This document shows, in pieces, positions 5,747 to 24,577 of a stretch of 64,000 bases of DNA. Source of the stretch: a bacterium (GTDB taxonomy: Bacteria > UBA8248); NCBI GenBank assembly GCA_965221165.1, contig CBDCRP010000003.1, positions 704,001-768,000 on the forward strand. The letters run 5' to 3'. The number at the start of each line of letters is the position of its first letter. The stretch's first letter is position 1. The notes below the pieces were generated by a model, which worked only from the letters and a program-made list of their open reading frames with translations, was not told the origin of the DNA and did no database searches. The position numbers and the translations under genes are program-made.

Positions 5747-6931
5747 CTAAGCGGGCTCGTCCAGCGTCTGCGCGGCGCGCAGCAGCGTCATCGAGTCCGT
5801 CCCGTCGCCGTGCAGGAAGGTGAGCAGGTCGCGCATCATCTTCTCCGTCGGCGTTTCCTTCATGATGCCGATGCCACCGAGAATATCCGTGGCGAAAGCG
5901 ATCGTCTTGAGCGCCACCTGATCGCTGAACACCTTTCCGTAGCGCGTGAAGCGCGTGTTGTAGCTCTCATCGTTCTCCACGCCCCAACTGATGCGCCACA
6001 TGAACTGCTCGGCCACCTCGATGTTCATGAGCATCTCGGCGAGTTGGTGCTGTATCGTCTGATGCTCGATGATGGGCTTGCCGCCCTGTATGCGCTCTTT
6101 CGCGTGCTGGAGACAGAAATTGTAAATACCGCGCGCAATGCCCGTATTACACGCCGGAAGCTCGGCGCTGCCCCGGAACACCGTGCCGAAGGTGTGAAAA
6201 CCCTTATTCACCCCGCCCAGGATGTCGTCCTTATGAACGCGCACGTTGTCGTAGTAGCTCTCGGCATTGGGATACAGCCTGTAGCCGAGCTTGTCGTGCA
6301 CGTTGCCGTAGGTAACGCCCTCCTGGTCCCCGTGTACGAGAAAGCAGCTAGTCCCCTGATGAAGCGGAACAGTGGGGTCCGTCCTCGCGAAGACCAGCAG
6401 GATTTTCGCCCAACTCGTGAGGGAGGTGAACCGTTTCGCACCGTTGATGACGTAGTAATCGCCATCCTCGACCGCCGAGGTTTTAAGGCCCAGACTGGGG
6501 TCGGACTGGCGGTAGATGTTGTCCGAACCGTAATCCGGCTCCGTTATCACGAACGAGCCCACGCAGTCGTGATCCTCGACGAACATCTTGCCCCATTTTT
6601 CGATCTGCGCCTCCGTGCCGCATTTGAAGAGCGCGTTCGATATCTTCCAGCACTGGCTCAGACACTTGATGACGCCGATCTCGATTTGCGCGCCCGTCCA
6701 GAGACAGAGAGCCTTCGTCGTCGTATCGGCCCCGATGCCTCCATGTTCCTCGGGAACCGCCATGGTGCGCAGGCCGAGCTGCGACGCCTTGTTGAGGAGC
6801 TCGCCCGGATAGCAATCCTTCGGGTCGGGCCGCCTGTCCATTTCCGCGGCGACGGGCGCGACATCGCGCTCCATGAAATCCCGGGTCAGATCCGCCAGCG
6901 CCAACTGCTCTTCAGTGAATGGATATTGCAT
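5747..6931 (-). CDS. Acyl-CoA dehydrogenase family protein
   Basis: ITEPDYGSD, YVINGAKRFTS, ERIQGGKPI, ILGGIG. Confidence 0.9.
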   Translation of the reverse strand: MQYPFTEEQLALADLTRDFMERDVAPVAAEMDRRPDPKDCYPGELLNKASQLGLRTMAVPEEHGGIGADTTTKALCLWTGAQIEIGVIKCLSQCWKISNALFKCGTEAQIEKWGKMFVEDHDCVGSFVITEPDYGSDNIYRQSDPSLGLKTSAVEDGDYYVINGAKRFTSLTSWAKILLVFARTDPTVPLHQGTSCFLVHGDQEGVTYGNVHDKLGYRLYPNAESYYDNVRVHKDDILGGVNKGFHTFGTVFRGSAELPACNTGIARGIYNFCLQHAKERIQGGKPIIEHQTIQHQLAEMLMNIEVAEQFMWRISWGVENDESYNTRFTRYGKVFSDQVALKTIAFATDILGGIGIMKETPTEKMMRDLLTFLHGDGTDSMTLLRAAQTLDEPA

Positions 6932-7040
6932 AACTCCTCCAAATCTTTGAGAAGAACTCTCATCAAAAGTAAGTGCGTATTCCTTGGTTATCCTCTCGCG
7001 CCCATGGTGTCAACATGAATCCGGCATACCACCCAGCGCC

Positions 7041-8726
7041 TCAAGCGCCCGCATGGCGCGCCGCCGCCTCACGCAACTCATCCCCTATCGGGACCCTCTG
7101 GTGCGCCGGGGCGTCATCAGGCCCCAACGATACATGGATGTTGGCCAGCCAGTTCTCATCATCGCGCTCGGGAGAATCAGACCTCGTATGCGCCCCCCGG
7201 CTTTCGGCGCGCATGGCCATCGAGCCCAGCATCGCCTCTGCGGTAAGGCACATGAGCCTCGACTGTGCATGGCGCGAGAGGAGCGAACCGGCGGACGTCA
7301 TTCCCGCTATTCTCTCTTTGTGAGCGGCTATCTTCGTGATGCCCTCTTGCAGCGCCGGCGCATCGCGCTCAATGCCGCCGGAGGAAAACATGATTTCGCG
7401 TATATTCTCTTCTATTTCATCCAGTTGGTCCTCATCCACCACGTCCACGCCCGCTGCGCCCACCTCACCTTTTTCAGGCGGCCCGCCCTCTCCCGCCACG
7501 TGGGCGGCGGCCCGGCCCGCCCGGTCACCCATCACCGCGCACACGGTGAGGCCCCCGCTCGCCAGGCGATTCGCTCCGTGCAAGCCGCCTCCGTTCTCAC
7601 CGGCGGCGAAAAGACCGTCCACGTCCGTTCGCCCGTTCGTGTCGATGAGGACGCCGCCCATGCACGAGTGCGCGGCGGGAGCGATTTCTATCGGCTCTTT
7701 CCGCACGTCGAGACCCGCCGCCTCGAAATCATCGATGATCTCGCCCATCACGTCTCTCAGCCCCTGGTAGGGCACCTGTGTCAAATCAAGATACACGCCG
7801 CCGTTTTCGCCTCCCCGCCCCTCTATGATTTCGCGGTGCATCGCGCGGGAGAGAACATCGCGCTTGGCGTGTTCCATATCGTCGGGCGCATAGCGGGTCA
7901 TGAACCGTTCATTCAGATTGTTCCTGATTCTCGCTTCGGGGAAGGAAAGGGCCATGCCCCCTGAGTTTCTGCCCCTGAGCTGCGGCGGATGGGCCAGCGC
8001 CGTGGGGGTGAACTGCACGAATTCCATGTCCCGCAATCGCGCCCCGGCGTCGAGCGCAGCCCCGTAGCCGACTCCCGCGACGCCCGGCGCATTCGTCGTT
8101 ACGGGATACATTCCCCCCAAACCGCCCATCGCCAGAATCGTGGCGCGCGCATACGCCCGAAGCAGATTCCCGTTTTCTTCCACCTGAAAATCGGCTCCCA
8201 CTACCCTCCCGCCGGCATCGCGCAGCAACCCGACGAAGGATAGCCCCTCCAGAACGCGCGCTCCGCTCTGCGCGAGTCTCGCGCCCAGAACCATCATCAT
8301 CCGGGGGCCGCCGCCTGGCACGCGCGCTCCCCGGGGGTAGGTATGCCCGGGAAGTTTCGTGGGCGTCATTCGACCGTTTTTCTCCAAAAAAGGAACCACA
8401 TGAGCGCGCAGACGCTCTATCGCGGCTCCCGATTCGGATGCGACCGTACGCACCAGGGCAGGGTCTGACATGAACCATCCGCTGCGGAAATTATCCGCCA
8501 CCATGGTTTCCACGGAATCATCCGGCAGGGAAAAACCCTCGAGTATCGTTGCGAAAACACCGCCCGCGCGCGCGGAATTTCCGCTCAAACCGGCCTCGCC
8601 CTTCATGGCGATGCAAACGTCCGCCCCTTCTTCGCGCGCCGCGAGAGCAGCCAGCGTTCCCGCCAGCCCTCCGCCGACGACCAATACATCCGTGCGTATT
8701 TCTTCCACGATTTCTCCGAACATCAC
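7041..8726 (-). CDS. FAD-dependent oxidoreductase, SdhA/FrdA/NadB family (divergent)
   Basis: [51 protein letters not shown]. Confidence 0.85.
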
Positions 8727-9412
8727 ATATCGGGATAAGGGAGCGGGTCCCGTTCACCGATTTCCTCGAACCCCTTTCGCCTCAGGATGCAAGCGTCGCA
8801 TGACCCGCAGGGCCGCCCCTCGTCCAGCGGATCGTAGCAGGTATGGGTGAGAGAAAAATCCACTCCCAACTCCAGACCTTTAAGCACGATGTCGGACTTT
8901 CGCATTGTGCTCAAAGGCGTATGGATCACAAGAGGCGCGCCCCCCACGCCCGATTTCGTGGCCAGGCGCGCCATGCGTTCATAGGCTTCGATGTATTCGG
9001 GGCGGCAATCCGGATAGCCGGAATAATCGAGCGCGTTCACCCCGATAAAAATATCACTCGCGCCCTTCACCTCGGCCAAGGCCAGCGCATAGCTCAGAAA
9101 AATGGTGTTTCGCGCGGGCACATAGGTAACGGGTATGCCCTCTCCGATGTCGGCGCGCTCCTTGGGCACCTCGATGTCGTCGGTGAGCGCGCTCCCGCCG
9201 ATGGCGCGCATGTCGATGGACAATACGGCATGGCCCGATGCGCCGATTTGTTTCGCCACTTTTTTCGCGGCTATAAGTTCACACCGGTGCCTTTGCCCGT
9301 AGTCGAAACTGAGCGCCTCGCAGGCGAAGCCTTGCCCGTTCGCTATCGCCAGAACGACGGCGGAATCCATGCCGCCGCTCAGGAGAACGACCGCCACTCT
9401 TTTCCCGTCCAC
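8723..9412 (-). CDS. queC: 7-cyano-7-deazaguanine synthase
   Basis: [35 protein letters not shown]-terminal CY...CGSCDAC. GTG start after AGGAG. Confidence 0.95.
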
Positions 9413-9530
9413 GTACGAACTCCTGCCTCTGCCGGTTGGATGAGCCTCTCTGCGAAAAAACGCATAATAGGGTATTCTAGCGCTTCGGCAAAGGTGAATG
9501 ACGTGTTTCTTCCACCTGGAGGAGAGGACG

Positions 9531-10331
9531 ATGCCCGTTGCGACGGTGAATGGAGTGAACCTCGCGTACGTCATGAAAGGCAGGGGAGCGCCCCTCGTCG
9601 CGATGCACGGATTCGCCAACTCCATATACACCTGGGAGCCGGTGATGGATGCGTTTTCCCGGCGTTTTCAGGCCTTCGCATACGATCATCGCGGCCACGG
9701 GGGGTCGAGCAAAAAACAAAACCCTTATGAGATTCAAACCCTCACCGATGATCTGCTGGGTCTCCTGAACTTCTGGGGACTCGACAGGGTCCACCTCATG
9801 GGACACAGCATGGGCGGGCGCGTCGCCCTGTTGTTCGCCTTACAACACCCCGAGAGACTCGAGAGCCTGATGCTCATCGGCGCCTCCGCAGCAGCACCCG
9901 AAGGAGAAGTGAGACGACGATTCGAACTTCTTCGAAAAATGGCGCTCGATGAAGGAATGGCGGCGGTTCTCAAGAGCGAGGATATGCGGGCAACCCTCCC
10001 CCGGGACTACATCGACGGCCCAAGTGCGGAGAAATTCAAAAGGCTATTCCTCAAAAACACACCCACCGACTACGCCGCGGCGGCAGACGCCATCCTCCAA
10101 ACGCCGGACATGACGGCGCGCCTGGGTGAAATCCAGGCTCCCGCCTGGGTTTGCACGGGCGAGGGAGACGCCGGGGCGATGGCATATGGGGAGATGTTCG
10201 AGGAGCGAATCCCGGGTTGCGTGAGAACGATTATCCCCGCCTGCGGGCATTTTCCGATGCAGGATGCGCCCGAGGCTTTTTGCGCCGCGTTCGATGACTT
10301 CGTCGAGGCGGCGATTGATTCGGACTCATAA
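9531..10331 (+). CDS. Alpha/beta hydrolase
   Basis: [17 protein letters not shown] nucleophile elbow, GH. Confidence 0.9.
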
Positions 10332-10342
10332 GGAGAACCTCC

Positions 10343-10744
10343 ATGACGCATGACGAGGCGGTGGCCTTCCTGAGCGAGCAGCACTACGGCGTCCTGAGCA
10401 CCCTGCTCGAGGACGGGAGATCGCACCCCACGCCCATCGTGTTCGACTACAAAGAAGGAGTCGCGGAGATTTCCATGACGTGGGACCGCGTGAAGGCCAA
10501 AAACCTGAAGCGCGACCCCAGGGCAACGCTTTGCGTGATGCCGCAAGACAGCTTCTATCCCTACCTCTGCGCGGAAGGCGAGGCAGAACTCATCGAAGAC
10601 CCGGACGGCACGAAAAACCTCGACCTCTACAGGCGCATCACCGGAAAGGACCCCGACGACCTCGATGAATACTTAGGAGCGATGAAAAACGAGAAACGAC
10701 TCGTGGCCAGACTGAGCGTCAAGAGGATGTATCCGATTGGGTGA
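10343..10744 (+). CDS. PPOX-class (pyridoxamine 5'-phosphate oxidase-like) oxidoreductase
   Basis: VLSTLLEDGRSH, KAKNLKRDPRATLCV. Confidence 0.85.
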   Translation: MTHDEAVAFLSEQHYGVLSTLLEDGRSHPTPIVFDYKEGVAEISMTWDRVKAKNLKRDPRATLCVMPQDSFYPYLCAEGEAELIEDPDGTKNLDLYRRITGKDPDDLDEYLGAMKNEKRLVARLSVKRMYPIG

Positions 10745-10802
10745 GCCGGCCCTCGTTTGTGTTATGATTCGAAGTGAACCCACCAAATAAGGAGGATGCT
10801 TC

Positions 10803-11117
10803 ATGGCCGTCACCGCAATCGTCCGTTTCCCGTTTCCTGAAGAAAAAAGCGAGGAGGAGCTGGTTGCTGGTTTCGAGAGTTCGTCGGCCCTCTACCGCGA
10901 TGTACCGGGCCTCTTGCGTAAATACTATCTGTTGTCCGAGGACCGGCGGACCGGGGGCGGGGTCTATATCTTCGAATCGCGCGCCGACGCCGAGCGCGTC
11001 CATGACGACGTATGGCGCGCCAGGCTGCGCGAGCGCATGGGAGTCGAGCCCGAGGTCCAATACTTCGACTCGCCCGTCATCGTCGACAACGAAGCCAAGG
11101 CCGCTTCCACCGCATAA
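10803..11117 (+). CDS. YdhR-like putative monooxygenase, copy 1
   Basis: YRDVPGLLRKYY...GGVYIFES...SPVIVDN. Confidence 0.8.
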   Translation: MAVTAIVRFPFPEEKSEEELVAGFESSSALYRDVPGLLRKYYLLSEDRRTGGGVYIFESRADAERVHDDVWRARLRERMGVEPEVQYFDSPVIVDNEAKAASTA

Positions 11118-11129
11118 GGAGGGTGCTCT

Positions 11130-11447
11130 ATGGCCGTCACCGCAATCGTCCGCTTCACGCTTCCCGAGGGGAAGACCCACGAGGAGATGGCCGCGGCCTT
11201 CGAGAGGTCGGCTCCTCTCTACCGCGACGTGCCGGGGCTGGTGCGCAAATACTACCTGGTGTCGGACGACGTGCGCACCGGCGGCGGGGTCTATCTGTTC
11301 GAGTCGCGCGCCGACGCCGAGCGCCTCTACGACGACGCCTGGCGCGCCGGGCTGCGCGAGCGCCTCGGAGTCGAGCCTACGATCGAATACTTCGAATCGC
11401 CCGTCATCGTCGACAACGAGGTCGGGGCGATCTCGACCGCGTCCTAG
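11130..11447 (+). CDS. YdhR-like putative monooxygenase, copy 2
   Basis: Closely similar tandem paralogue of the preceding gene. Confidence 0.8.
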   Translation: MAVTAIVRFTLPEGKTHEEMAAAFERSAPLYRDVPGLVRKYYLVSDDVRTGGGVYLFESRADAERLYDDAWRAGLRERLGVEPTIEYFESPVIVDNEVGAISTAS

Positions 11448-17022: not shown

Positions 17023-18008
17023 TGGAAACCGAAGAAACGGCGCAACCGGCGAGCACCCCCGCCTATCCCTACTCGTCTCTCTTAAGGATCACCCACTGGC
17101 TGAACGTCCCCCTCCTGCTCCTCATGATGGCGAGCGGGTTTCAGATATGGTGGGCATACCCCGCGTTCGGGCCGGACAGGCCCAACCCGGAGGCCATCTT
17201 CGAATCACTGCGGGGCACGGAGGTACAGGCCGACCCGCGCGCCATCAACCTGGGCGCCGACTACAGGGTTTTCGTCCAAGGCCTCACGAAAACCTTCGGC
17301 ATCGGGGAATGGCTCGCGGGCGCGCTGCGCTGGCACTTCGCTCTCATGTGGCCCTACACCATCAACGGGCTGATTTTCCTTCTTCTCCTGCTCTTGACGG
17401 AGGAAGGGAGGCACTACCGAATAAGGCAGGGAGATTTCTCCGGCGCGAAGGAGATGCTCTTACACCCCATCAAAACCTTTCACCATCCTCCCGGAGAGGG
17501 AAAATTCAACCCGATACAAAAACTCGCGTACAACACCGTCATACTGGCCGGGGTGATGTCCGTCCTCACGGGTCTCGCCATCCTCAAACCCGTCCAGTTC
17601 AAGTGGCTGACCCGGCTTTTCGGGGGCTATCAGCCGAGCAGATTCCTGCATTTTCTCGTCATGTTGTTTCTCGTCATTTTCATGATCGGCCATTTTCTCA
17701 TGGTGATATCCCACGGATGGCGGCGAGGGCTTGCACCCATGATCGTCGGAATCAAGGCGGAGCGCGACGCTTTTCAGGCCAGACAAAGGCAATTCGCCAA
17801 AAATCTCGGCCGCGTAGCCGCCGAGGGAGCGATTCTGCTGGTTTCCTTTTGGCTCGGAACCCTCATCGCGGATATGATGAACGCAGCCTTGGGCGGCGAG
17901 GCATCGGGCGCGTGGTTCGGCGCGCTCGGCTACCTCTTCGTGCGGGCGGGCCTCATGCGAGGGGGGCGCATCGAAGGCTTTCGCTGGAAGCGAAGCCTCG
18001 GGAGTTGA
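17019..18008 (+). CDS. Cytochrome b/b6 domain protein (YdhU/PhsC-like, MsrQ analogue)
   Basis: RITHWLN, WHF, KFNPIQKLAY, SRFLHF...GH heme-ligand histidines. ATGA overlap with the upstream stop. Confidence 0.85.
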   Translation: MMETEETAQPASTPAYPYSSLLRITHWLNVPLLLLMMASGFQIWWAYPAFGPDRPNPEAIFESLRGTEVQADPRAINLGADYRVFVQGLTKTFGIGEWLAGALRWHFALMWPYTINGLIFLLLLLLTEEGRHYRIRQGDFSGAKEMLLHPIKTFHHPPGEGKFNPIQKLAYNTVILAGVMSVLTGLAILKPVQFKWLTRLFGGYQPSRFLHFLVMLFLVIFMIGHFLMVISHGWRRGLAPMIVGIKAERDAFQARQRQFAKNLGRVAAEGAILLVSFWLGTLIADMMNAALGGEASGAWFGALGYLFVRAGLMRGGRIEGFRWKRSLGS

Positions 18009-18012
18009 GCGA

Positions 18013-18303
18013 ATGAGCACGGAAGAACAAATGGAATTCATACTGCCGACCAAACTGGCGAAGCGTAGGCTTTTCGTGGGCAGGCTGGTTTTGAGCGTCG
18101 TTTGCATCAACGCGCTTCTCTCTCTCCTCGCCGCATATCTGCTGAGCGGGCCGATGACCTGGCTAACGCGGTTTGAGTTCGGGTTCCTGGCCTGGGCCTC
18201 CATCTTATTCCCGACTTCTCTCGTTCTGGCGGTCCCGATAATGGCGCCCATCATCATTAAAATACTGAAATCCCCGCCTGCGTCCTCTGAAGAGAGAAGA
18301 TGA
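18013..18303 (+). CDS. Small two-helix membrane protein
   Basis: Two hydrophobic segments. Fills the operon gap with an ATGA overlap. Confidence 0.6.
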   Translation: MSTEEQMEFILPTKLAKRRLFVGRLVLSVVCINALLSLLAAYLLSGPMTWLTRFEFGFLAWASILFPTSLVLAVPIMAPIIIKILKSPPASSEERR

Positions 18304-19112
18304 AAAAAGGCGAAAAGCGAAACCCAGGCGTTGGCGTGGACAAGTCTTCATCGTCCCGGCGCGGATTCATGAAAATGCTCCTTGGCCTCGCCTCCGTATT
18401 CATGGCCGGGTGTTCCCGCCTGAACGAAGAGCCCAAGGTGCAGGCCGTCCTCAGTTGGTTCGATCGCCTGAACCACAAGGTGGGCCTCATGACGGACAGC
18501 AACCACCGACTGGCGCGCACCTACCCCAGAAGCGCCGTTCAGCCCGAACAAATGCGGCCCAACGGCTCGGTGGTCTCGCCGAACTCCCAGCTCATCCAGA
18601 CGCCCCCCGAGAAGTGGCGCCTCGTCGTGGGGGAAGCCCATCTGCAAAAGGGCCGGATGATGAAAAGACACTGGGCCAGGGAATACACGCTTGCGCAGCT
18701 TCGCGAGATGCCCGTTCTCGAGCAGACGGTGGAGCACGTTTGCGTCGAGGGCTGGAGCGCCATCTGCCACTGGCAGGGAGTGCACCTCGCGCGCTTCATC
18801 GAGATGCACAAGCTCAGGCCCGAGAGCCGCTACGTGTTCTTCCTGTGCGACGACATGCTCGCCACCGCGAACGGGCACGAGCGCTACAGCGTGACGTTCG
18901 ACTTAAAGCAGGCGATGCACCCGCAGAACGTGCTGGCGTATGAATACAACGGCGAGACGCTGCCCGTGAACCACGGCGCTCCCATCCGCCTCGCCTCGCC
19001 CGCGAACGTGGGCTGGAAGAGCGCGAAATTCCTGCGCTACGTCTTTTTCACGAACGAGGACCTGGGCGGATTATGGGAGAAGCAGGGGTATCCGCGCTAT
19101 TATGGATTCTGA
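18300..19112 (+). CDS. Molybdopterin-dependent oxidoreductase, sulfite oxidase/MsrP family, with Tat lipoprotein signal
   Basis: SRRGFMK twin-arginine motif, MAGC lipobox, HVCVEGWS (Mo-ligand Cys), HGAPIRL, GWKSAK. Confidence 0.9.
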   Translation: MKKGEKRNPGVGVDKSSSSRRGFMKMLLGLASVFMAGCSRLNEEPKVQAVLSWFDRLNHKVGLMTDSNHRLARTYPRSAVQPEQMRPNGSVVSPNSQLIQTPPEKWRLVVGEAHLQKGRMMKRHWAREYTLAQLREMPVLEQTVEHVCVEGWSAICHWQGVHLARFIEMHKLRPESRYVFFLCDDMLATANGHERYSVTFDLKQAMHPQNVLAYEYNGETLPVNHGAPIRLASPANVGWKSAKFLRYVFFTNEDLGGLWEKQGYPRYYGF

Positions 19113-19126
19113 TGCCCCCGAAAGTC

Positions 19127-19156
19127 TTGACAAGCCCCCGCCCGCCTACATATAAA
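19127..19156 (+). promoter_or_regulatory. Sigma70-like promoter upstream of the tRNA
   Basis: TTGACA-N18-TATAAA. Confidence 0.5.
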
Positions 19157-19221
19157 CCCCTTACGCTTGGGAGCCGGCGCCGATTCCGGTAGAATGCCGA
19201 CTCAAGCGGAACGCCTCTCGA

Positions 19222-19296
19222 TCCGGCGTAGCTCAACGGCAGAGCAATCGGCTGTTAACCGATGGGTTGTAGGTTCGAATCCTACCGCCGGAGCCA
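19222..19296 (+). tRNA. tRNA-Asn (GTT)
   Basis: TCCGGCG acceptor, AGCTCAACGGCAGAGC D-arm, CTGTTAA anticodon loop, GTTCGAATC T-loop, encoded CCA. Confidence 0.97.
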
Positions 19297-19425
19297 GGAA
19301 ATACTATAAGTATTTGATTTTATTATCCTTAATAAATAGAAAGAAATGTCCGACCCACCATTCGGCCCACGAAGAATTACTGAATAATGGGCATCCGGCA
19401 CCAGTGAAAAGACGGAGAAGTGCAA

Positions 19426-20058
19426 ATGAGTGTGTTTCAGGCCAATTGTCCGTACTGCGGGACAAAAGCCGTTGCATTTAAGATCGTTACAAGCCGACGA
19501 GTGCAATCGAGGACAAATAATCGGTGGGACTCTCTCGCGACTTGTGGATTCTGCACCCGCGGGATACTCGCGACCTTCGAGACGCTACAAACCAATACCA
19601 TTCCAGAAAAACTACTGGATTCAAACAGGGATAACGAAGTGGAGCTAAAGACGATTTCTCCATCGCCGCCAAGTACGGGAGCCCCAGCAGACACGCCTCC
19701 CAGGGCTGCGAACTACTACAGGCAAGGAATGGAAAACCTACGAAACAACTACGACGCCCCCGGCAGCATGTTTAGGTCAGCACTAGAGGCCGGCCTAAAA
19801 GAGAAATTTCCGGACATCGACGGCTCGTTGTACGAACGGATCGAGAAAGCGGCGAACCAACAAGGTTTGACTCCTGACTTGGCTGATTGGGCACATCGGA
19901 TTCGGCTCGATGGCAACGACGCGGTACATGGCGACGAGGAATTCTTGAAGGAGGATGCGGAGCGTCTTCACGCCTTCACCGAACTGGTCTTTCTATATCT
20001 GTTCACCTTGCCCGGGATGTTGGAGAAGGCCCGGGACGAACAGACGGATGGCGGCTGA
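19426..20058 (+). CDS. DUF4145 (HEPN-like) protein with N-terminal Zn ribbon
   Basis: CPYC...CGFC, MFRSALE, LYERIE, RLDGNDAVH. Confidence 0.8.
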   Translation: MSVFQANCPYCGTKAVAFKIVTSRRVQSRTNNRWDSLATCGFCTRGILATFETLQTNTIPEKLLDSNRDNEVELKTISPSPPSTGAPADTPPRAANYYRQGMENLRNNYDAPGSMFRSALEAGLKEKFPDIDGSLYERIEKAANQQGLTPDLADWAHRIRLDGNDAVHGDEEFLKEDAERLHAFTELVFLYLFTLPGMLEKARDEQTDGG

Positions 20059-20084
20059 TCTGACGCAGCGCCTTGCGATTCCCC

Positions 20085-20942
20085 TCAAACGCCGTTTTTC
20101 GCTTTTTCGAGGGTGGCGACGTTCATCGGGTGCGCATTGCGGCGGCGTTTGTCGAAGCGGACGCCCAAACGCGCGGCCTCGGCGAGACTCAAGCCCGCTT
20201 CTCGCAATTCGTCTCGGCTGAACCCCTTGCCGGGCCTCCATTCTCCGCGCGCATCTCTCACGAGAGCGGAAAATCCATTTTGCGTGGCAAGCATTTCCGA
20301 TGGTTCATTCGGCTGCTCCCGAGGCGGGTCGGCGGCAACCTCGATGAGCGTCGAGAGCCCATCTTCCCCGGACGGTTCGGGCTCATCCGGCAATTCATCC
20401 GAGACCGCTGCCGCCAAGGGTTCCTCATGCGCAGGGGCGAGGTCGCCGGTAATTTCCGGTTCGCTTTCCTGAGGGATATCCGGCCCGGGTGCAGACGCCT
20501 TCACAACGCTTTCAGCCACAGCCGGGACGGCATCCTCATGCTCTTGCGGCGGCTCAGCCTCATCAGGCAAATCACTTGATTCCGGCGCAGACAAAACCTC
20601 GAAGTCGGCCCCATATCCTCGAGGTGGCTCGGGATCGTGAGAAGGCTCAAGTTCATTCGGCGACTCGTCTGCTCCCGACGCCGCCAGCAATTCAAAATCG
20701 GGGCCATAGTCTTTTTCCTGCATATCCATCCCGCTCCTCGAATCGGAGCGCGTTTGTTCACCGGAAGCCAATAAATCGAAGTCAGCGCCATATCCGCTTT
20801 CCTCCGCCCCAAGTGCGGAATCCGGGGATTTTCGCTTGACGGCAAAAGGCGGCGGGATTTCATACCCCTCTTCCCCCGGCCCGGGGGGTGCGGAGCGCTT
20901 GGAGCCGGCGATGCGGTTTAAGAGTTTCTTTCTGATTTGCAT
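20085..20942 (-). CDS. Acidic low-complexity protein with C-terminal ribosomal protein eL13 (L13e)-like domain
   Basis: C-terminus RPGKGFSRDELREAGLSLAEAARLGVRFDKRRRNAHPMNVATL. GAGGGGG RBS and upstream TTGACA-N18-TAGTTT (21067-21038). Confidence 0.75.
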   Translation of the reverse strand: MQIRKKLLNRIAGSKRSAPPGPGEEGYEIPPPFAVKRKSPDSALGAEESGYGADFDLLASGEQTRSDSRSGMDMQEKDYGPDFELLAASGADESPNELEPSHDPEPPRGYGADFEVLSAPESSDLPDEAEPPQEHEDAVPAVAESVVKASAPGPDIPQESEPEITGDLAPAHEEPLAAAVSDELPDEPEPSGEDGLSTLIEVAADPPREQPNEPSEMLATQNGFSALVRDARGEWRPGKGFSRDELREAGLSLAEAARLGVRFDKRRRNAHPMNVATLEKAKNGV

Positions 20943-21195
20943 GCCCCCTCTTTCAACTCAGAAATTCATTGCGTGGATAATCTCTCGTCGAGGTATTACA
21001 GGGGGGGCGGTAACAAAACTGGATAGGCTACGGGTTAAAACTAACGATTCCAGAGGCTCGCTGTCAAGGCGCTCGCTCCCGAGCGCGCGCATGCGCCGGG
21101 GATGATCATCGGCGCGGGACGTCCACGAGGACGGGCGAATGCGCCCTCCTCCGTCAGTCCGCTTTTATCCGCCCCCCCTTGGCGCCGGTTGTATT

Positions 21196-21513
21196 CTATC
21201 CATCCCCCTGATGGATGGTTCTCAGGTCTCGCTCGAGATCTTCAAGGTCGTATTGGGCCGGCGCTTTTCTCGCGCGGGCATAATCCGTCATCTCCCACAA
21301 GGACACCCCGGCATCGCGAGCGGCCCGCGCGAGCGTGAGCTTTCCATCCCCGTACAGCCGGACGTAGTGCTCCAGCTTCCATTGCCGGATCGCGCTCGAG
21401 AGCAGCCGGCGCACGGTGGTTGAACGATCGGACTGCTCCACATCCTCGATGAGTTCCAATTCGCGGACCAACTCCAGGGGGAGTCTGGCGCCCACCATCC
21501 GTTCTTTCTTCAT
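21196..21513 (-). CDS. UPF0175-family antitoxin (RHH plus HTH)
   Basis: VGARLP...DRSTTVRRLL, LYGDGKLTLARAARDAGVSLWEM. ATGA overlap with the PIN gene. Confidence 0.8.
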   Translation of the reverse strand: MKKERMVGARLPLELVRELELIEDVEQSDRSTTVRRLLSSAIRQWKLEHYVRLYGDGKLTLARAARDAGVSLWEMTDYARARKAPAQYDLEDLERDLRTIHQGDG

Positions 21514-22025
21514 CTCTTCGCCTCCCGTGCGAGTCTCAATACTTCCACCACGACGGCCGGGGAGAGCCATAATATCCGAGTGATATCCCGAATCGTGGCC
21601 TCGAATTCTCCCAAGTCAAGGTATCCTCGCAAGTACGCTTCCAACAATGCGCCGACGGCGCCCAAGTGTTCTACCCCGACCGCCGCGGCCACGCTTCGGG
21701 CTTCCTTGTCATCAGCGATCAGTCGCAGGCCCCGCAGGTCCGCGAGCGCGATGGACTCGGCCTCCCCCCGGTCCAGCCGGGAGCGCCCCATCAGCCGTTG
21801 CATCAGGTCTTGCTCCTCGGCGGTCAAGCGCACCGTCCGCAGCCAGCCGTCTTCCATAGCGGTCTCAAGTTGTTCCACGCCCAGGGCGCGAACAACCCTG
21901 CCGGTATCGATTGTCTCCTCCTTCACGACAGCCCCTATCAGCACCTCGCCGTAGAGTTCGTTCAAGAGTCCCAGACGCCCGAGCTTGGCGAGGACAATCA
22001 ACGAAGAGGCGTCGGCTACGATCAT
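21510..22025 (-). CDS. DUF3368-type PIN domain protein (VapC-like toxin)
   Basis: IVADASSLI, LDRGEAESIALA, LIADDKEAR. Confidence 0.85.
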   Translation of the reverse strand: MIVADASSLIVLAKLGRLGLLNELYGEVLIGAVVKEETIDTGRVVRALGVEQLETAMEDGWLRTVRLTAEEQDLMQRLMGRSRLDRGEAESIALADLRGLRLIADDKEARSVAAAVGVEHLGAVGALLEAYLRGYLDLGEFEATIRDITRILWLSPAVVVEVLRLAREAKR

Positions 22026-22062
22026 TCAATCTCCTTCAGAAATCTCACCACTACATTACCTG

Positions 22063-22093
22063 ATGATAACATATTTTACAATTGTTTACAATT
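22063..22093 (-). promoter_or_regulatory. Promoter of the TA operon with overlapping direct-repeat operator
   Basis: Minus strand TTGTAA-N17-TATCAT with TGn extension. TTTACAATT repeated at 22075-22083 and 22085-22093. Confidence 0.6.
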
Positions 22094-22152
22094 CGGGATT
22101 GACATGCTCTCCACCGCTGCTTGGCCACACCGGCTGGTGCACCCCTCCGCCG

Positions 22153-22914
22153 TCAGGCTCCTACCTCTTCCGCCAACTCCTCGGCGGTTTGTGCGATGAG
22201 CGCGATGTCCTGGGGTCTCGAGAGCCTGTGATCCCCATCCTTTACGAGCGTCAGGCGCACGTCGTCGCTTTTGAGGGCGCGCGCCAGGCGTAAACTCGTT
22301 TCCCACGGCACGCTCTCATCGCGCATCCCGTGGATGAGGCGAACGGGGCAAGCGAGCGGGATATCATCGCGCAGGAGCAGATGGTTCGCTCCCTCCTCGA
22401 GCAGTTTCCTGGTGATGGGGTATGGCGCCTCGTATTCCGATTCACGCATGAAGTACCCCTGCGCATCGAGTTCCCGCCGCGTGGCTTCGGCGAGCGCGCT
22501 GCGTATCAAATCCTCGGTGAAGTCGGGGGCCGCCGCCACTCCCACGATGCCCTCCACGCGCCCGGGCCGTGCCAGGGCGGCGAGCAGCATAATCCATCCG
22601 CCCATGCTCGATCCGACGAGCACCTGGGGACCCCGGGCGACGCGGTCCAGTATCGCGACGGCATCCTCCGCCCACTCCCCGATGGTTCCCTCCTCGAATT
22701 TTCCCGAAGATTCCCCGTGGCCGCCGTAATCGAAGCGGACGTAGGCGCGCCCCACCTCTCGGCAATGCGCCTCGAGCGCACTCGCCTTCGTCCCGCTCAT
22801 GTCCGAGTGAAAACCGCCCAGGAACATCAGGCCGGGAGATTTCCCCTCCAGCCGGAACCAGGCGAGCGAAGTCCCGCCCGGTCGAGAGAGGAAACTCGAA
22901 GCGGCGTCAGCCAT
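22153..22914 (-). CDS. Alpha/beta hydrolase (ABHD10-like)
   Basis: GGFHSDMSGTKA, FDYGGHGES, GSSMGGW, AAAPDF, DGDHRLS. Confidence 0.9.
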   Translation of the reverse strand: MADAASSFLSRPGGTSLAWFRLEGKSPGLMFLGGFHSDMSGTKASALEAHCREVGRAYVRFDYGGHGESSGKFEEGTIGEWAEDAVAILDRVARGPQVLVGSSMGGWIMLLAALARPGRVEGIVGVAAAPDFTEDLIRSALAEATRRELDAQGYFMRESEYEAPYPITRKLLEEGANHLLLRDDIPLACPVRLIHGMRDESVPWETSLRLARALKSDDVRLTLVKDGDHRLSRPQDIALIAQTAEELAEEVGA

Positions 22915-22922
22915 TTTTCGTT

Positions 22923-23456
22923 CTAGGATGATTTCTTGAGATGTTCGAGCAAACGAGCGGGGACGCCCCGGACCGCAGCTTCCGCCGCTTCGTCCAGGCA
23001 CCGCCCATCCTCGTCGAATACCTTATGGACGCTCCCGATGGAGGCCTGGCCGGGCAGAACTTCTCCGCCGATATGGGTGAGAATGTGTCTTAAGTGCGAT
23101 AGCGCGTTGTCCGCGCTCGGCCCCATCGCCACACCCAGGATGGCGATGGTCTTGCCCTCGAACGTCGAGGGGTAGCCCAGGTTGTCTATAGCCAGTTTGA
23201 GCGTGCTGCTGATGCTGCCGTGATACTCGGGCGTCGCGATGAGGATTCCCGCCGCCCCCGTCACCAAACCTTTCAGCATCTCGGGGTCTTTCGATTCGCT
23301 CGGCTCTCCGGGCAGGGGCAAATCCAGATCGCCCAGATGCACGCGGGTGATCTCGAAATCACCCTCCCCCAACTCGTCGAGCGCGAGCGCAAGCGCCTTG
23401 TCCGTATTGTTTTGCGGCCTGCGACTACCGCCGAACACGAGAATATAGGGGGGCAT
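22923..23456 (-). CDS. NADPH-dependent FMN reductase (SsuE-like)
   Basis: GSRR, TPEYHGSISSTLKLAID. Confidence 0.88.
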   Translation of the reverse strand: MPPYILVFGGSRRPQNNTDKALALALDELGEGDFEITRVHLGDLDLPLPGEPSESKDPEMLKGLVTGAAGILIATPEYHGSISSTLKLAIDNLGYPSTFEGKTIAILGVAMGPSADNALSHLRHILTHIGGEVLPGQASIGSVHKVFDEDGRCLDEAAEAAVRGVPARLLEHLKKSS

Positions 23457-23470
23457 TTCCGTCTTTTCGA

Positions 23471-24577
23471 TTAAGCAGCGACGCCCGCAGGCTCGGGAAG
23501 TACGATGGGCTCGGTATCCTTGAGAAGCGGCAGAACCTCCCTGCCGAAAATTTCCGCCTCTTCCTTGTGCGGCCATCCGTTCATGATGAAGTGGCGCACG
23601 CCCGCGTCGTAATACTCTCTAATGACGCCGGCGACCATCTCCGGCGTGCCGACGAACATGGTTCCAGCACCCCCACGCACCTTGTTCACCCCCATCCAAA
23701 TCGTATCGGTGAGCCAGAGACTCCCCCGGGAGCCCATCTCGTTGATGCGCATCTGGCCGGTGGATTCGGTGTTGTTCTTCATGTCGGCCCACGTACCCGT
23801 GTTCGAGATGTCGCTCCTGTCAATAAGCGCCTCGGCGGCGCGCACCGCCTCTTCCCTCGTCTCGCGCACGCAGACCAGATGGCGGATGCCGTAACTCAGC
23901 GGGCGCTCGCGGCCATATTCCTGCGACTTCTTCACGCCCTCCTCGATGTCCTTTCCGACGATTTCGGGTTCTGCGGCGTACATCACGTGCACATCCCCGT
24001 GCTCCCAGGCCACCCGCTTTCCCGGGTCCGAGCTGCCCGCCAGGAAGATCGGGGGGTTGGGCTTCGTCACCCTCTCGGGGAAGATGGCCGCATTTTCGAT
24101 TTCAAAGAATTTTCCCTTGTAGTCCAGCGGACCGTCCGAGTCCCACAGCTTGCGCACCACGTCGAGAAACTCCCCCGTGCGCGCATAGCGATCGTCATGC
24201 GGCATGAAATCCCCGTATCTTTTCTGATCGACGGGCGTGCTGCCCGTCACCACGTTCAGCGTACAGCGCCCGCCGGTCAGATAATCAAGGCTGTTCGCCT
24301 GCTGCGCCGCATAGACCGGGCCGGTGATTCCGGGCCTGAAAGCCACCAGAAACTTGATTTTTTTCGTTCGGCTCGATATCGCGCCAGCCGCCGTCCACGC
24401 ATCGATGCAGTGCGTGCCGCACGGCACCAGGATATTGGCGAAACCCGCCTCCTCGGCCGACCTCGTCACCTCGGCAAGATAGTCCAGGGTGGCGGGACGA
24501 TCAGGCGTCTTCTGGTTCACCTGCGTCCCGTCTCCCGCCCTGTGGGAGCAAAGCGCCCAGATATATTCGGTAGACAT
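23471..24577 (-). CDS. LLM-class flavin-dependent monooxygenase (SsuD-like)
   Basis: FLVAFRPG, GRCTLNVVTG, HDDRYARTGEF, VGTPEMVA, PHKEEA. Confidence 0.88.
   Translation of the reverse strand: MSTEYIWALCSHRAGDGTQVNQKTPDRPATLDYLAEVTRSAEEAGFANILVPCGTHCIDAWTAAGAISSRTKKIKFLVAFRPGITGPVYAAQQANSLDYLTGGRCTLNVVTGSTPVDQKRYGDFMPHDDRYARTGEFLDVVRKLWDSDGPLDYKGKFFEIENAAIFPERVTKPNPPIFLAGSSDPGKRVAWEHGDVHVMYAAEPEIVGKDIEEGVKKSQEYGRERPLSYGIRHLVCVRETREEAVRAAEALIDRSDISNTGTWADMKNNTESTGQMRINEMGSRGSLWLTDTIWMGVNKVRGGAGTMFVGTPEMVAGVIREYYDAGVRHFIMNGWPHKEEAEIFGREVLPLLKDTEPIVLPEPAGVAA

Follow-up and report, generated by a model that had tools for sequence, protein, structure and literature searches.

Ribosomal protein eL13 (L13e) is usually held to be a marker of eukaryotes and some archaea that is absent from bacteria. 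Other archaeo-eukaryotic ribosomal proteins have bacterial paralogues, such as the L7Ae-family proteins of Bacillus, in which an RNA-binding fold of archaeal/eukaryotic ribosomal type is used beyond its ribosomal role. Here, a gene encoding an L13e domain is described from a bacterial genome (labelled G000; GenBank assembly GCA_965221165.1, lineage UBA8248). The DNA analysed, hereafter called the window, is a stretch of 64,000 nucleotides (nt) corresponding to positions 704,001 to 768,000 of contig CBDCRP010000003.1. The product of the gene, a short acidic L13e-domain protein, was given the label SA. It likewise shows a ribosomal RNA-binding fold in a bacterium, but its fold differs from that of the L7Ae family, and its module is fused to other sequence whereas the L7Ae-family proteins are free-standing. 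No description of bacterial L13e-domain proteins was found in the literature searched, and a table of Pfam counts from 2011 gives 0 bacterial entries for it (PMC3056875).

The second described system with which the locus can be compared is Druantia type III. According to the available portions of two sources (bioRxiv 10.64898/2026.05.13.724758; PMC13316683), DruH of E. coli and M. smegmatis is a large protein without annotated domains, the gene of which lies just upstream of druE and overlaps it. The same gene position is taken by a set of unnamed proteins of ~600-970 amino acids (aa) with an L13e-like domain at their extreme C-terminus, for which the label LFam was coined. LFam and SA nevertheless differ from DruH, as no PADLOC DruH model matched either of them. 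In the main texts of the Druantia and YprA papers searched, the term 'L13' does not occur; their supplements might list such domains.

The SA gene consists of the following parts.

20085..20942, minus strand: SA coding sequence of 285 aa, stop codon included (open reading frame list, ATG start)
20088..20285, minus strand: C-terminal archaeal-type L13e (eL13 core) domain, residues 220-285, isoelectric point (pI) 11.2
20130-20240, minus strand: Pfam-matched core of the domain, residues 235-271 (PF01294)
20286..20366, minus strand: pre-domain segment, residues 193-219, including LIEVAADPP, which aligns with the 'LTLIRVxADxxP' region of LFam (BLASTP, hhalign)
20286..20822, minus strand: acidic, Pro-rich region, residues 41-219 (composition; predicted local distance difference test (pLDDT) mostly <50)
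20592..20792, minus strand: three YGxDFxLL motifs, residues 51-117
20769-20792, minus strand: first motif, YGADFDLL, residues 51-58
20685-20708, minus strand: second motif, YGPDFELL, residues 79-86
20592-20615, minus strand: third motif, YGADFEVL, residues 110-117
20823..20942, minus strand: basic N-terminal region, residues 1-40, pI 10.6 (alignment, AlphaFold2, composition)
20944..20951, minus strand: Shine-Dalgarno-like sequence AGAGGGGG, with GAGG 4 nt ahead of the ATG
21038..21067, minus strand: possible promoter, with TTGACA at 21062-21067, an 18-nt spacer and a weak -10 box, TAGTTT, at 21038-21043

An earlier reading made from the sequence only had recognised the pattern of short archaeal L13e in the C-terminal part of the protein, and had proposed a profile search and a structural comparison as checks. 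The pattern is indeed carried by the last 66 residues, and both checks supported it. PF01294 (Ribosomal_L13e) was the sole Pfam family to match SA at E<=10, and it did so above its gathering cut-off (32.2 versus 24.9 bits, E=1.2e-7), aligning residues 235-271 to positions 62-98 of the 180 in the profile. The NCBIfam model of archaeal L13e, NF008914, matched residues 232-280 with E=3.3e-14 and 52.3 bits. SA falls short of the equivalog cut-off of this model (96 bits) because only model positions 25-73 of 83 were matched. A PDB sequence search returned 66 distinct chains at E<=1; all of the 60 chains listed were eL13/L13, with 6rm3_LL0 (E=7.7e-6) and 9e6q_AH (E=1.3e-5, aligned over residues 234-280) at the top. 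By BLASTP, the domain shares 57% identity across 49 residues with the 85-aa protein P0117, which clears the NCBIfam L13e cut-off (121 versus 96 bits), and in a joint alignment the C-terminal 66 residues of SA span essentially the entire short archaeal L13e. The signature G(K/R)GFS..EL..AG...A..L....D.RR(R/K) is common to SA, archaeal L13e (NF008914) and eL13 (PF01294).

A structural model was obtained with AlphaFold2 from a 32-sequence alignment. The mean pLDDT of 10-residue blocks was 42-55 up to residue 220 and rose to 78-94 from residue 221. All 50 matches listed by Foldseek against the PDB were chains of eukaryotic ribosomes or pre-60S particles, and those also present in the PDB sequence search carry the name eL13 there. 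The compact alignments showed a root-mean-square deviation of 2.3-3.4 Å over 61-70 columns, and the predicted C-terminal domain displays the eL13 core fold. These results demonstrate that the C-terminal domain of SA is homologous to archaeal-type L13e and has the eL13 fold. As a lead only, the best ESM Atlas score (0.75) was to a 75-aa archaeal cluster.

The organism is a bacterium with a bacterial-type ribosome, as the sequence-only reading had assumed: G000 carries bL12, and the bL12 family matched only the 10 bacterial genomes among the controls. SA is thus not a free-standing small ribosomal protein of archaea or eukaryotes. Unlike free L13e of 70-90 aa, its domain forms the C-terminus of a 285-aa acidic bacterial protein, and unlike L13e encoded among ribosomal genes, it is found in a variable slot linked to a tRNA gene. 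The automatic label 'ribosomal protein L13e' is misleading for proteins of this type. No sign of a chimeric contig was seen at this position, and the same gene order was found in four other genomes of the genus. Furthermore, a 1227-nt contig from public runs, which may stem from the source sample, covers positions 20126-21352 with zero differences. The runs in question are two DNA runs from one sample, possibly the source sample, and they show only contigs covering SA.

Outside the L13e domain, SA comprises a basic N-terminal region with a predicted helix (residues 4-11) and a conserved YEIPPP motif, followed by residues 41-219, which are indeed acidic and Pro-rich as first described (pI 4.05; 48 D/E and 24 P among 179 residues). 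This region is predicted to be disordered, and the part before residue 220 contains six short stretches with pLDDT not below 50. Y110, G111, E115 and L117 are invariant across the 32-sequence alignment. The acidic middle varies in length among relatives, the whole proteins of the SA family having 230-483 aa, and a looser version of YGxDFxLL occurs 0-4 times per protein. The gene had been credited with a good ribosome-binding site, which the GAGG motif bears out, and with promoter-like boxes, of which the -35 box is a perfect TTGACA; the -10 box is weak, and a consensus promoter scan upstream of SA found none at its threshold.

The L13e module is widespread rather than a one-off, and it is reused in bacteria. 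When 1.84 billion representatives were searched with a domain profile, 987 proteins matched at E<=1e-3, 161 of them at E<=1e-10. The best 150 matches were of three kinds, namely the SA family, LFam and small proteins of 55-160 aa with an N-terminal L13e domain, two of which clear the archaeal L13e cut-off. Ten of the small proteins were looked up, and all three named clusters among them were archaeal or labelled L13e. According to our own classification, the proteins pooled from the searches include 53 long ones of LFam type. A Pfam scan of 30 such proteins (P0127 set aside) gave PF01294 alone in 27 and no family in 3. An LFam profile matched 156 proteins at E<=1e-10, none of them named, and 99 of the 120 matches listed end in an L13e-like module. 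Their conserved central core of ~450 aa contains the motifs PRIWW and GRFFxRVY. A search of 72,556 plasmid records with the LFam protein P0113 gave no match; SA itself was not searched there.

Some LFam members have other C-termini. P0319 ends in uS17 (104.9 bits), P0329 in bS6 (30.1 bits) and P0297 in NusB followed by an L13e-like stretch, all three being putative fusions and each a singleton; the uS17 and bS6 endings belong to the 21 non-L13e endings of the 120 listed, and P0297 is counted among the 99. Other members end in a basic coiled tail or in a zinc-ribbon-like tail.

Immediately downstream of the LFam gene, and overlapping with it, lies the gene for a DruE-like helicase (Druantia type III-like). 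In G006, a genome of the same genus as G000, the LFam gene (locus L024, 4959-6941) overlaps the start of the gene for a 1425-aa helicase (6925-11202), which scores 514 bits on the PADLOC DruE models. Fourteen metagenome loci were fetched, ten of which had enough downstream sequence to be evaluated. In eight of the ten (L036, L038-L042, L045 and L048; the exceptions were L035 and L043) a helicase gene coding for 1395-1426 aa follows the LFam gene with a small overlap. All eight helicases are 58-66% identical to that of G006 over their full length, and the four that were tested scored 492-526 bits on the DruE models. The DruE-like helicases display DEAD, Helicase_C and MZB domains.

Two deviating arrangements were observed. 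The LFam copy of G008, another genome of the genus (L053, 1216-3606), has an acidic tail in place of the L13e-like end, and a weak L13e-like fragment is found downstream in another frame. In L048 (5616-9611), the protein encoded upstream of the DruE-like helicase gene has 1331 aa. Its N-terminal part resembles MzaA (PADLOC 218 bits) and its C-terminal part LFam, and its L13e-like end is degenerate.

The relation between SA and LFam was investigated by several comparisons. BLASTP aligned SA residues 193-283 with the LFam protein P0103 (42% identity over 91 aa, E=2e-17), and hhalign of the two family alignments matched residues 200-285 over 83 columns (probability 99.6%, E=4.7e-24). The homology therefore runs ~20-27 residues upstream of the L13e core. 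In the reverse direction, the LFam profile matched SA genes at its positions ~643-737 with 70-87 bits. In a quick tree of 150 domains, SA is nested in a 77-row clade that is mostly LFam (Shimodaira-Hasegawa-like approximate likelihood ratio test 88). SA shares with LFam the module at the extreme C-terminus and the segment before it. It lacks the ~450-aa core, and its gene is flanked by a DUF4145 gene and the UPF0175/PIN pair, with no helicase gene next door. Both proteins further possess an N-terminal helix and acidic low-complexity sequence, which is a likeness of architecture only, since hhalign found no significant similarity outside residues 200-285, the N-termini included.

With moderate confidence, SA is best explained as an offshoot of LFam without helicase, or as a user of the LFam module, that would bind RNA, the ribosome or another nucleic acid via its L13e module. 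A careful tree of 68 rows weighs against this explanation, as SA (support 100/97) falls there next to, and not within, the main clade of LFam, which unites 26 of its 28 rows (95/92). So do approximately unbiased (AU) tests, which rejected neither a grouping of SA with LFam (p=0.21) nor one with the small archaeal-type proteins (p=0.25), and the fact that SA is as near to bona fide archaeal L13e (57%) as to LFam domains (42%, P0103). The missing similarity of the N-termini counts on the same side, as does the result that 17 of 18 LFam proteins were without any PADLOC match.

These points touch on the cross-domain transfer proposed by the sequence-only reading, in which an archaeal rpl13e gene was fused directly to an acidic disordered region, giving an RNA- or ribosome-binding factor unconnected with LFam. 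The archaeal-type homology underlying that proposal stood; a transfer straight into the SA gene was neither shown nor rejected, the AU tests allowing both origins. Such a transfer is compatible with the identity to P0117, itself above the archaeal L13e cut-off, with the alignment of the SA domain to an entire archaeal L13e, with the higher score of NF008914 compared to the mostly eukaryotic PF01294 and with the archaeal or ribosomal L13e identity of the three named clusters among the ten small proteins. Several other features speak against it. The similarity to LFam extends upstream of the domain, the domain is C-terminal in both proteins, and an LFam gene occupies the same slot in the congener G006. 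Moreover, an SA-derived profile scores, after SA itself, LFam proteins at the top (95, 84 and 77 bits) and the small proteins at 75 bits at most, and the quick tree places SA among the LFam rows. A direct transfer is thus considered unlikely.

The distribution of SA in related genomes, proposed earlier as a check, was established by whole-genome searches. An intact SA gene is present in G000 and in 17 of the 22 other genomes of the genus, with 2-3 copies in each of six genomes. The family was not detected in the 28 other genomes of the phylum (51 genomes of the phylum in all), in 7 genomes of other phyla or, by a search without positive control, in 19 genomes of a sister phylum. Crenarchaeota encode L13e. 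Absence of SA outside the genus is weak evidence, because none of the 14 control genomes, including that of Sulfolobus acidocaldarius, matched PF01294 or NF008914. A scan of genome contigs with SA gave 2 loci. A word-based search returned 84 SA relatives of 156-499 aa, 79 of which have a precomputed PF01294 match and only one of which is named ('ribosomal protein L13e', in an NCBI record). The same kind of search for short relatives gave 12 candidates, none of them archaeal.

SA is a real gene under purifying selection. The mean column identity of the L13e domain over 15 sequences of the family is 80%, and the median ratio of nonsynonymous to synonymous substitution rates (dN/dS; NG86 method, 6 genes, 14-15 pairs) is 0.27 for the N-terminus, 0.43 for the acidic region and 0.25 for the L13e module. 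It is very improbable, then, that SA is a decaying remnant, a functionless leftover of an LFam gene after loss of the helicase. The missing LFam core would fit such a remnant, as would two extra copies in G010 that seem to be split into two frames, but the frames are intact in 18 genomes, dN/dS stays at 0.25-0.43, the C-terminal domain is near-invariant and the N-terminal and YG..ELL motifs are conserved. The two copies of G010 (L025, 3440-4562; L026, 3586-4859) each appear as two overlapping or adjacent frames, with the N-terminal acidic part separate from the L13e part, which could reflect a frameshift or an assembly error in a repeat region.

The genomic slot of SA is bordered by a tRNA gene on one side and by a hydrolase gene on the other. 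Its features in the window and its content in the compared genomes are as follows.

19222..19296, plus strand: tRNA-Asn(GTT), one border of the variable slot (ARAGORN; Rfam 71.3 bits)
19420..20058, plus strand: DUF4145 gene, convergent with SA, directly after tRNA-Asn (Pfam DUF4145, 51.4 bits)
21196..22025, minus strand: UPF0175 and PIN-like pair, a putative toxin-antitoxin, between SA and the hydrolase gene (Pfam)
22153..23001, minus strand: alpha/beta hydrolase, the other, conserved border of the slot (Pfam)
Slot content in the window (G000): SA, the phage-type low-GC DUF4145 gene and the UPF0175/PIN pair
Slot content in G019: empty
Slot content in G008 and G001: other cargo
Slot content in G006: a 660-aa LFam protein and the 1425-aa helicase

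The tRNA-Asn gene also borders the slot in G005, G022, G007, G014, G006, G008, G019 and G001, and hydrolase orthologues (77-83% identity) adjoin it in G006, G008, G019, G001 and others. SA lies between the two in the window, G005, G022, G007 and G014. In G006, this tRNA-Asn and the corresponding hydrolase gene (81% identity) flank the LFam-helicase pair. This pair was found in none of the 18 SA genomes, and the two genomes of the genus that have it (G006 and G008) are without SA. The exclusivity rests on 23 related genomes, so that the counts are not independent, which weakens it as an argument for a link between SA and LFam. No DruE-like match was obtained in G000 at E<=1e-20, and the other SA genomes likewise yielded no DruE-like helicase.

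The DUF4145 gene matched phrog_1305 ('DNA binding protein', 116 bits) and weakly PADLOC PD-T7-4, and has a GC content of 0.49-0.53 versus ~0.59 for the window. This gene, a phage-type cargo of the slot, was probably left behind by a mobile element. The UPF0175/PIN pair is present in some genomes only: among the other loci compared, a match to the UPF0175 gene was obtained only in G014 (L033). Direct repeats derived from the tRNA, as marks of an integrated element, were not found around SA. Rfam (E<=0.1) found no RNA gene besides tRNA-Asn in 18000-23500. ARAGORN also proposed a tRNA-Pro(GGG) at 18482-18558 (minus strand), inside a molybdopterin-oxidoreductase open reading frame (18300-19112); this is probably a false call, because Rfam finds only tRNA-Asn in that region.

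The company of SA in this slot raises the possibility of a defence-island function in conflicts with phages or mobile elements. SA could then work on its own as a sensor or a decoy, or it could be a truncated mimic by which DruE-like systems are regulated or blocked through competition of the shared terminal modules. SA shares the slot with the phage-type DUF4145 gene and the PIN/UPF0175 genes, the slot content varies between genomes from nothing to other cargo or an LFam-helicase pair, SA and that pair never occur in one genome, and at least one other short form, P0151, exists. Yet SA has no PADLOC or PHROGs match, a tblastn search with SA of 50,697 phage records gave no match, the SA genomes contain no detected DruE-like helicase as a target, and a host function would account at least equally well for wide retention in the genus with purifying selection. 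A defence function of this kind is regarded as unlikely, yet it is a serious rival in view of the island setting and of the mutual exclusion between SA and the helicase pair. P0151, a 160-aa protein outside the SA family, consists of an N-terminal helix, a Ser/Asp-rich disordered region and an L13e-like domain, which suggests that miniature versions of L13e-domain proteins arose more than once.

As to the preferred reading, SA as an LFam offshoot or a user of its module, we infer its descent from LFam, its ligand and the role of its tail as follows. SA may have lost the ~450-aa central core of LFam and kept the terminal parts only, and it sits as cargo in the variable slot linked to tRNA-Asn. 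The basic L13e module (pI 11) may bind a conserved nucleic-acid ligand, most probably structured RNA (rRNA or the ribosome), in the manner of eL13. A conserved ligand of the host is argued for because the domain is near-invariant in genomes without a detected helicase partner. The acidic tail could mask the L13e surface, or could recruit partners through its short hydrophobic motifs.

The analysis shows that an entire archaeal-type module is reused in bacteria, that the members of an uncharacterised family, partners of a Druantia-type helicase, as a rule end in it, and that purifying selection acts on a genus-wide derivative without helicase. Being small, basic and of known fold, the domain offers a handle on the partner proteins of DruE-like helicases. 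It also raises the question of whether a ribosome-derived RNA-binding module links RNA or the ribosome to DNA-directed defence or to an orphan acidic protein. One could go further and suppose, which we consider quite doubtful, that the protein paired with a DruE-like defence helicase has an exchangeable C-terminal module derived from the translation apparatus (usually archaeal-type L13e; in single proteins uS17, bS6 or NusB with an L13e-like stretch), and that this branch of Druantia-like immunity is tied to the ribosome or rRNA, or employs look-alikes of ribosomal proteins as bait. SA would then be a free-standing offshoot whose multivalent acidic tail is anchored on the bacterial ribosome or rRNA by a module not expected in bacteria.

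A last observation concerns three of the small proteins, P0114, P0125 and P0137 (129-159 aa), in which an N-terminal L13e-like domain is followed by a C-terminal stretch with weak similarity to the C-terminal end of DNA topoisomerase I models. P0114 and P0137 also weakly match the N-terminal end of a RadA model, and P0125 instead a stretch in the middle of a DNA polymerase IV model.

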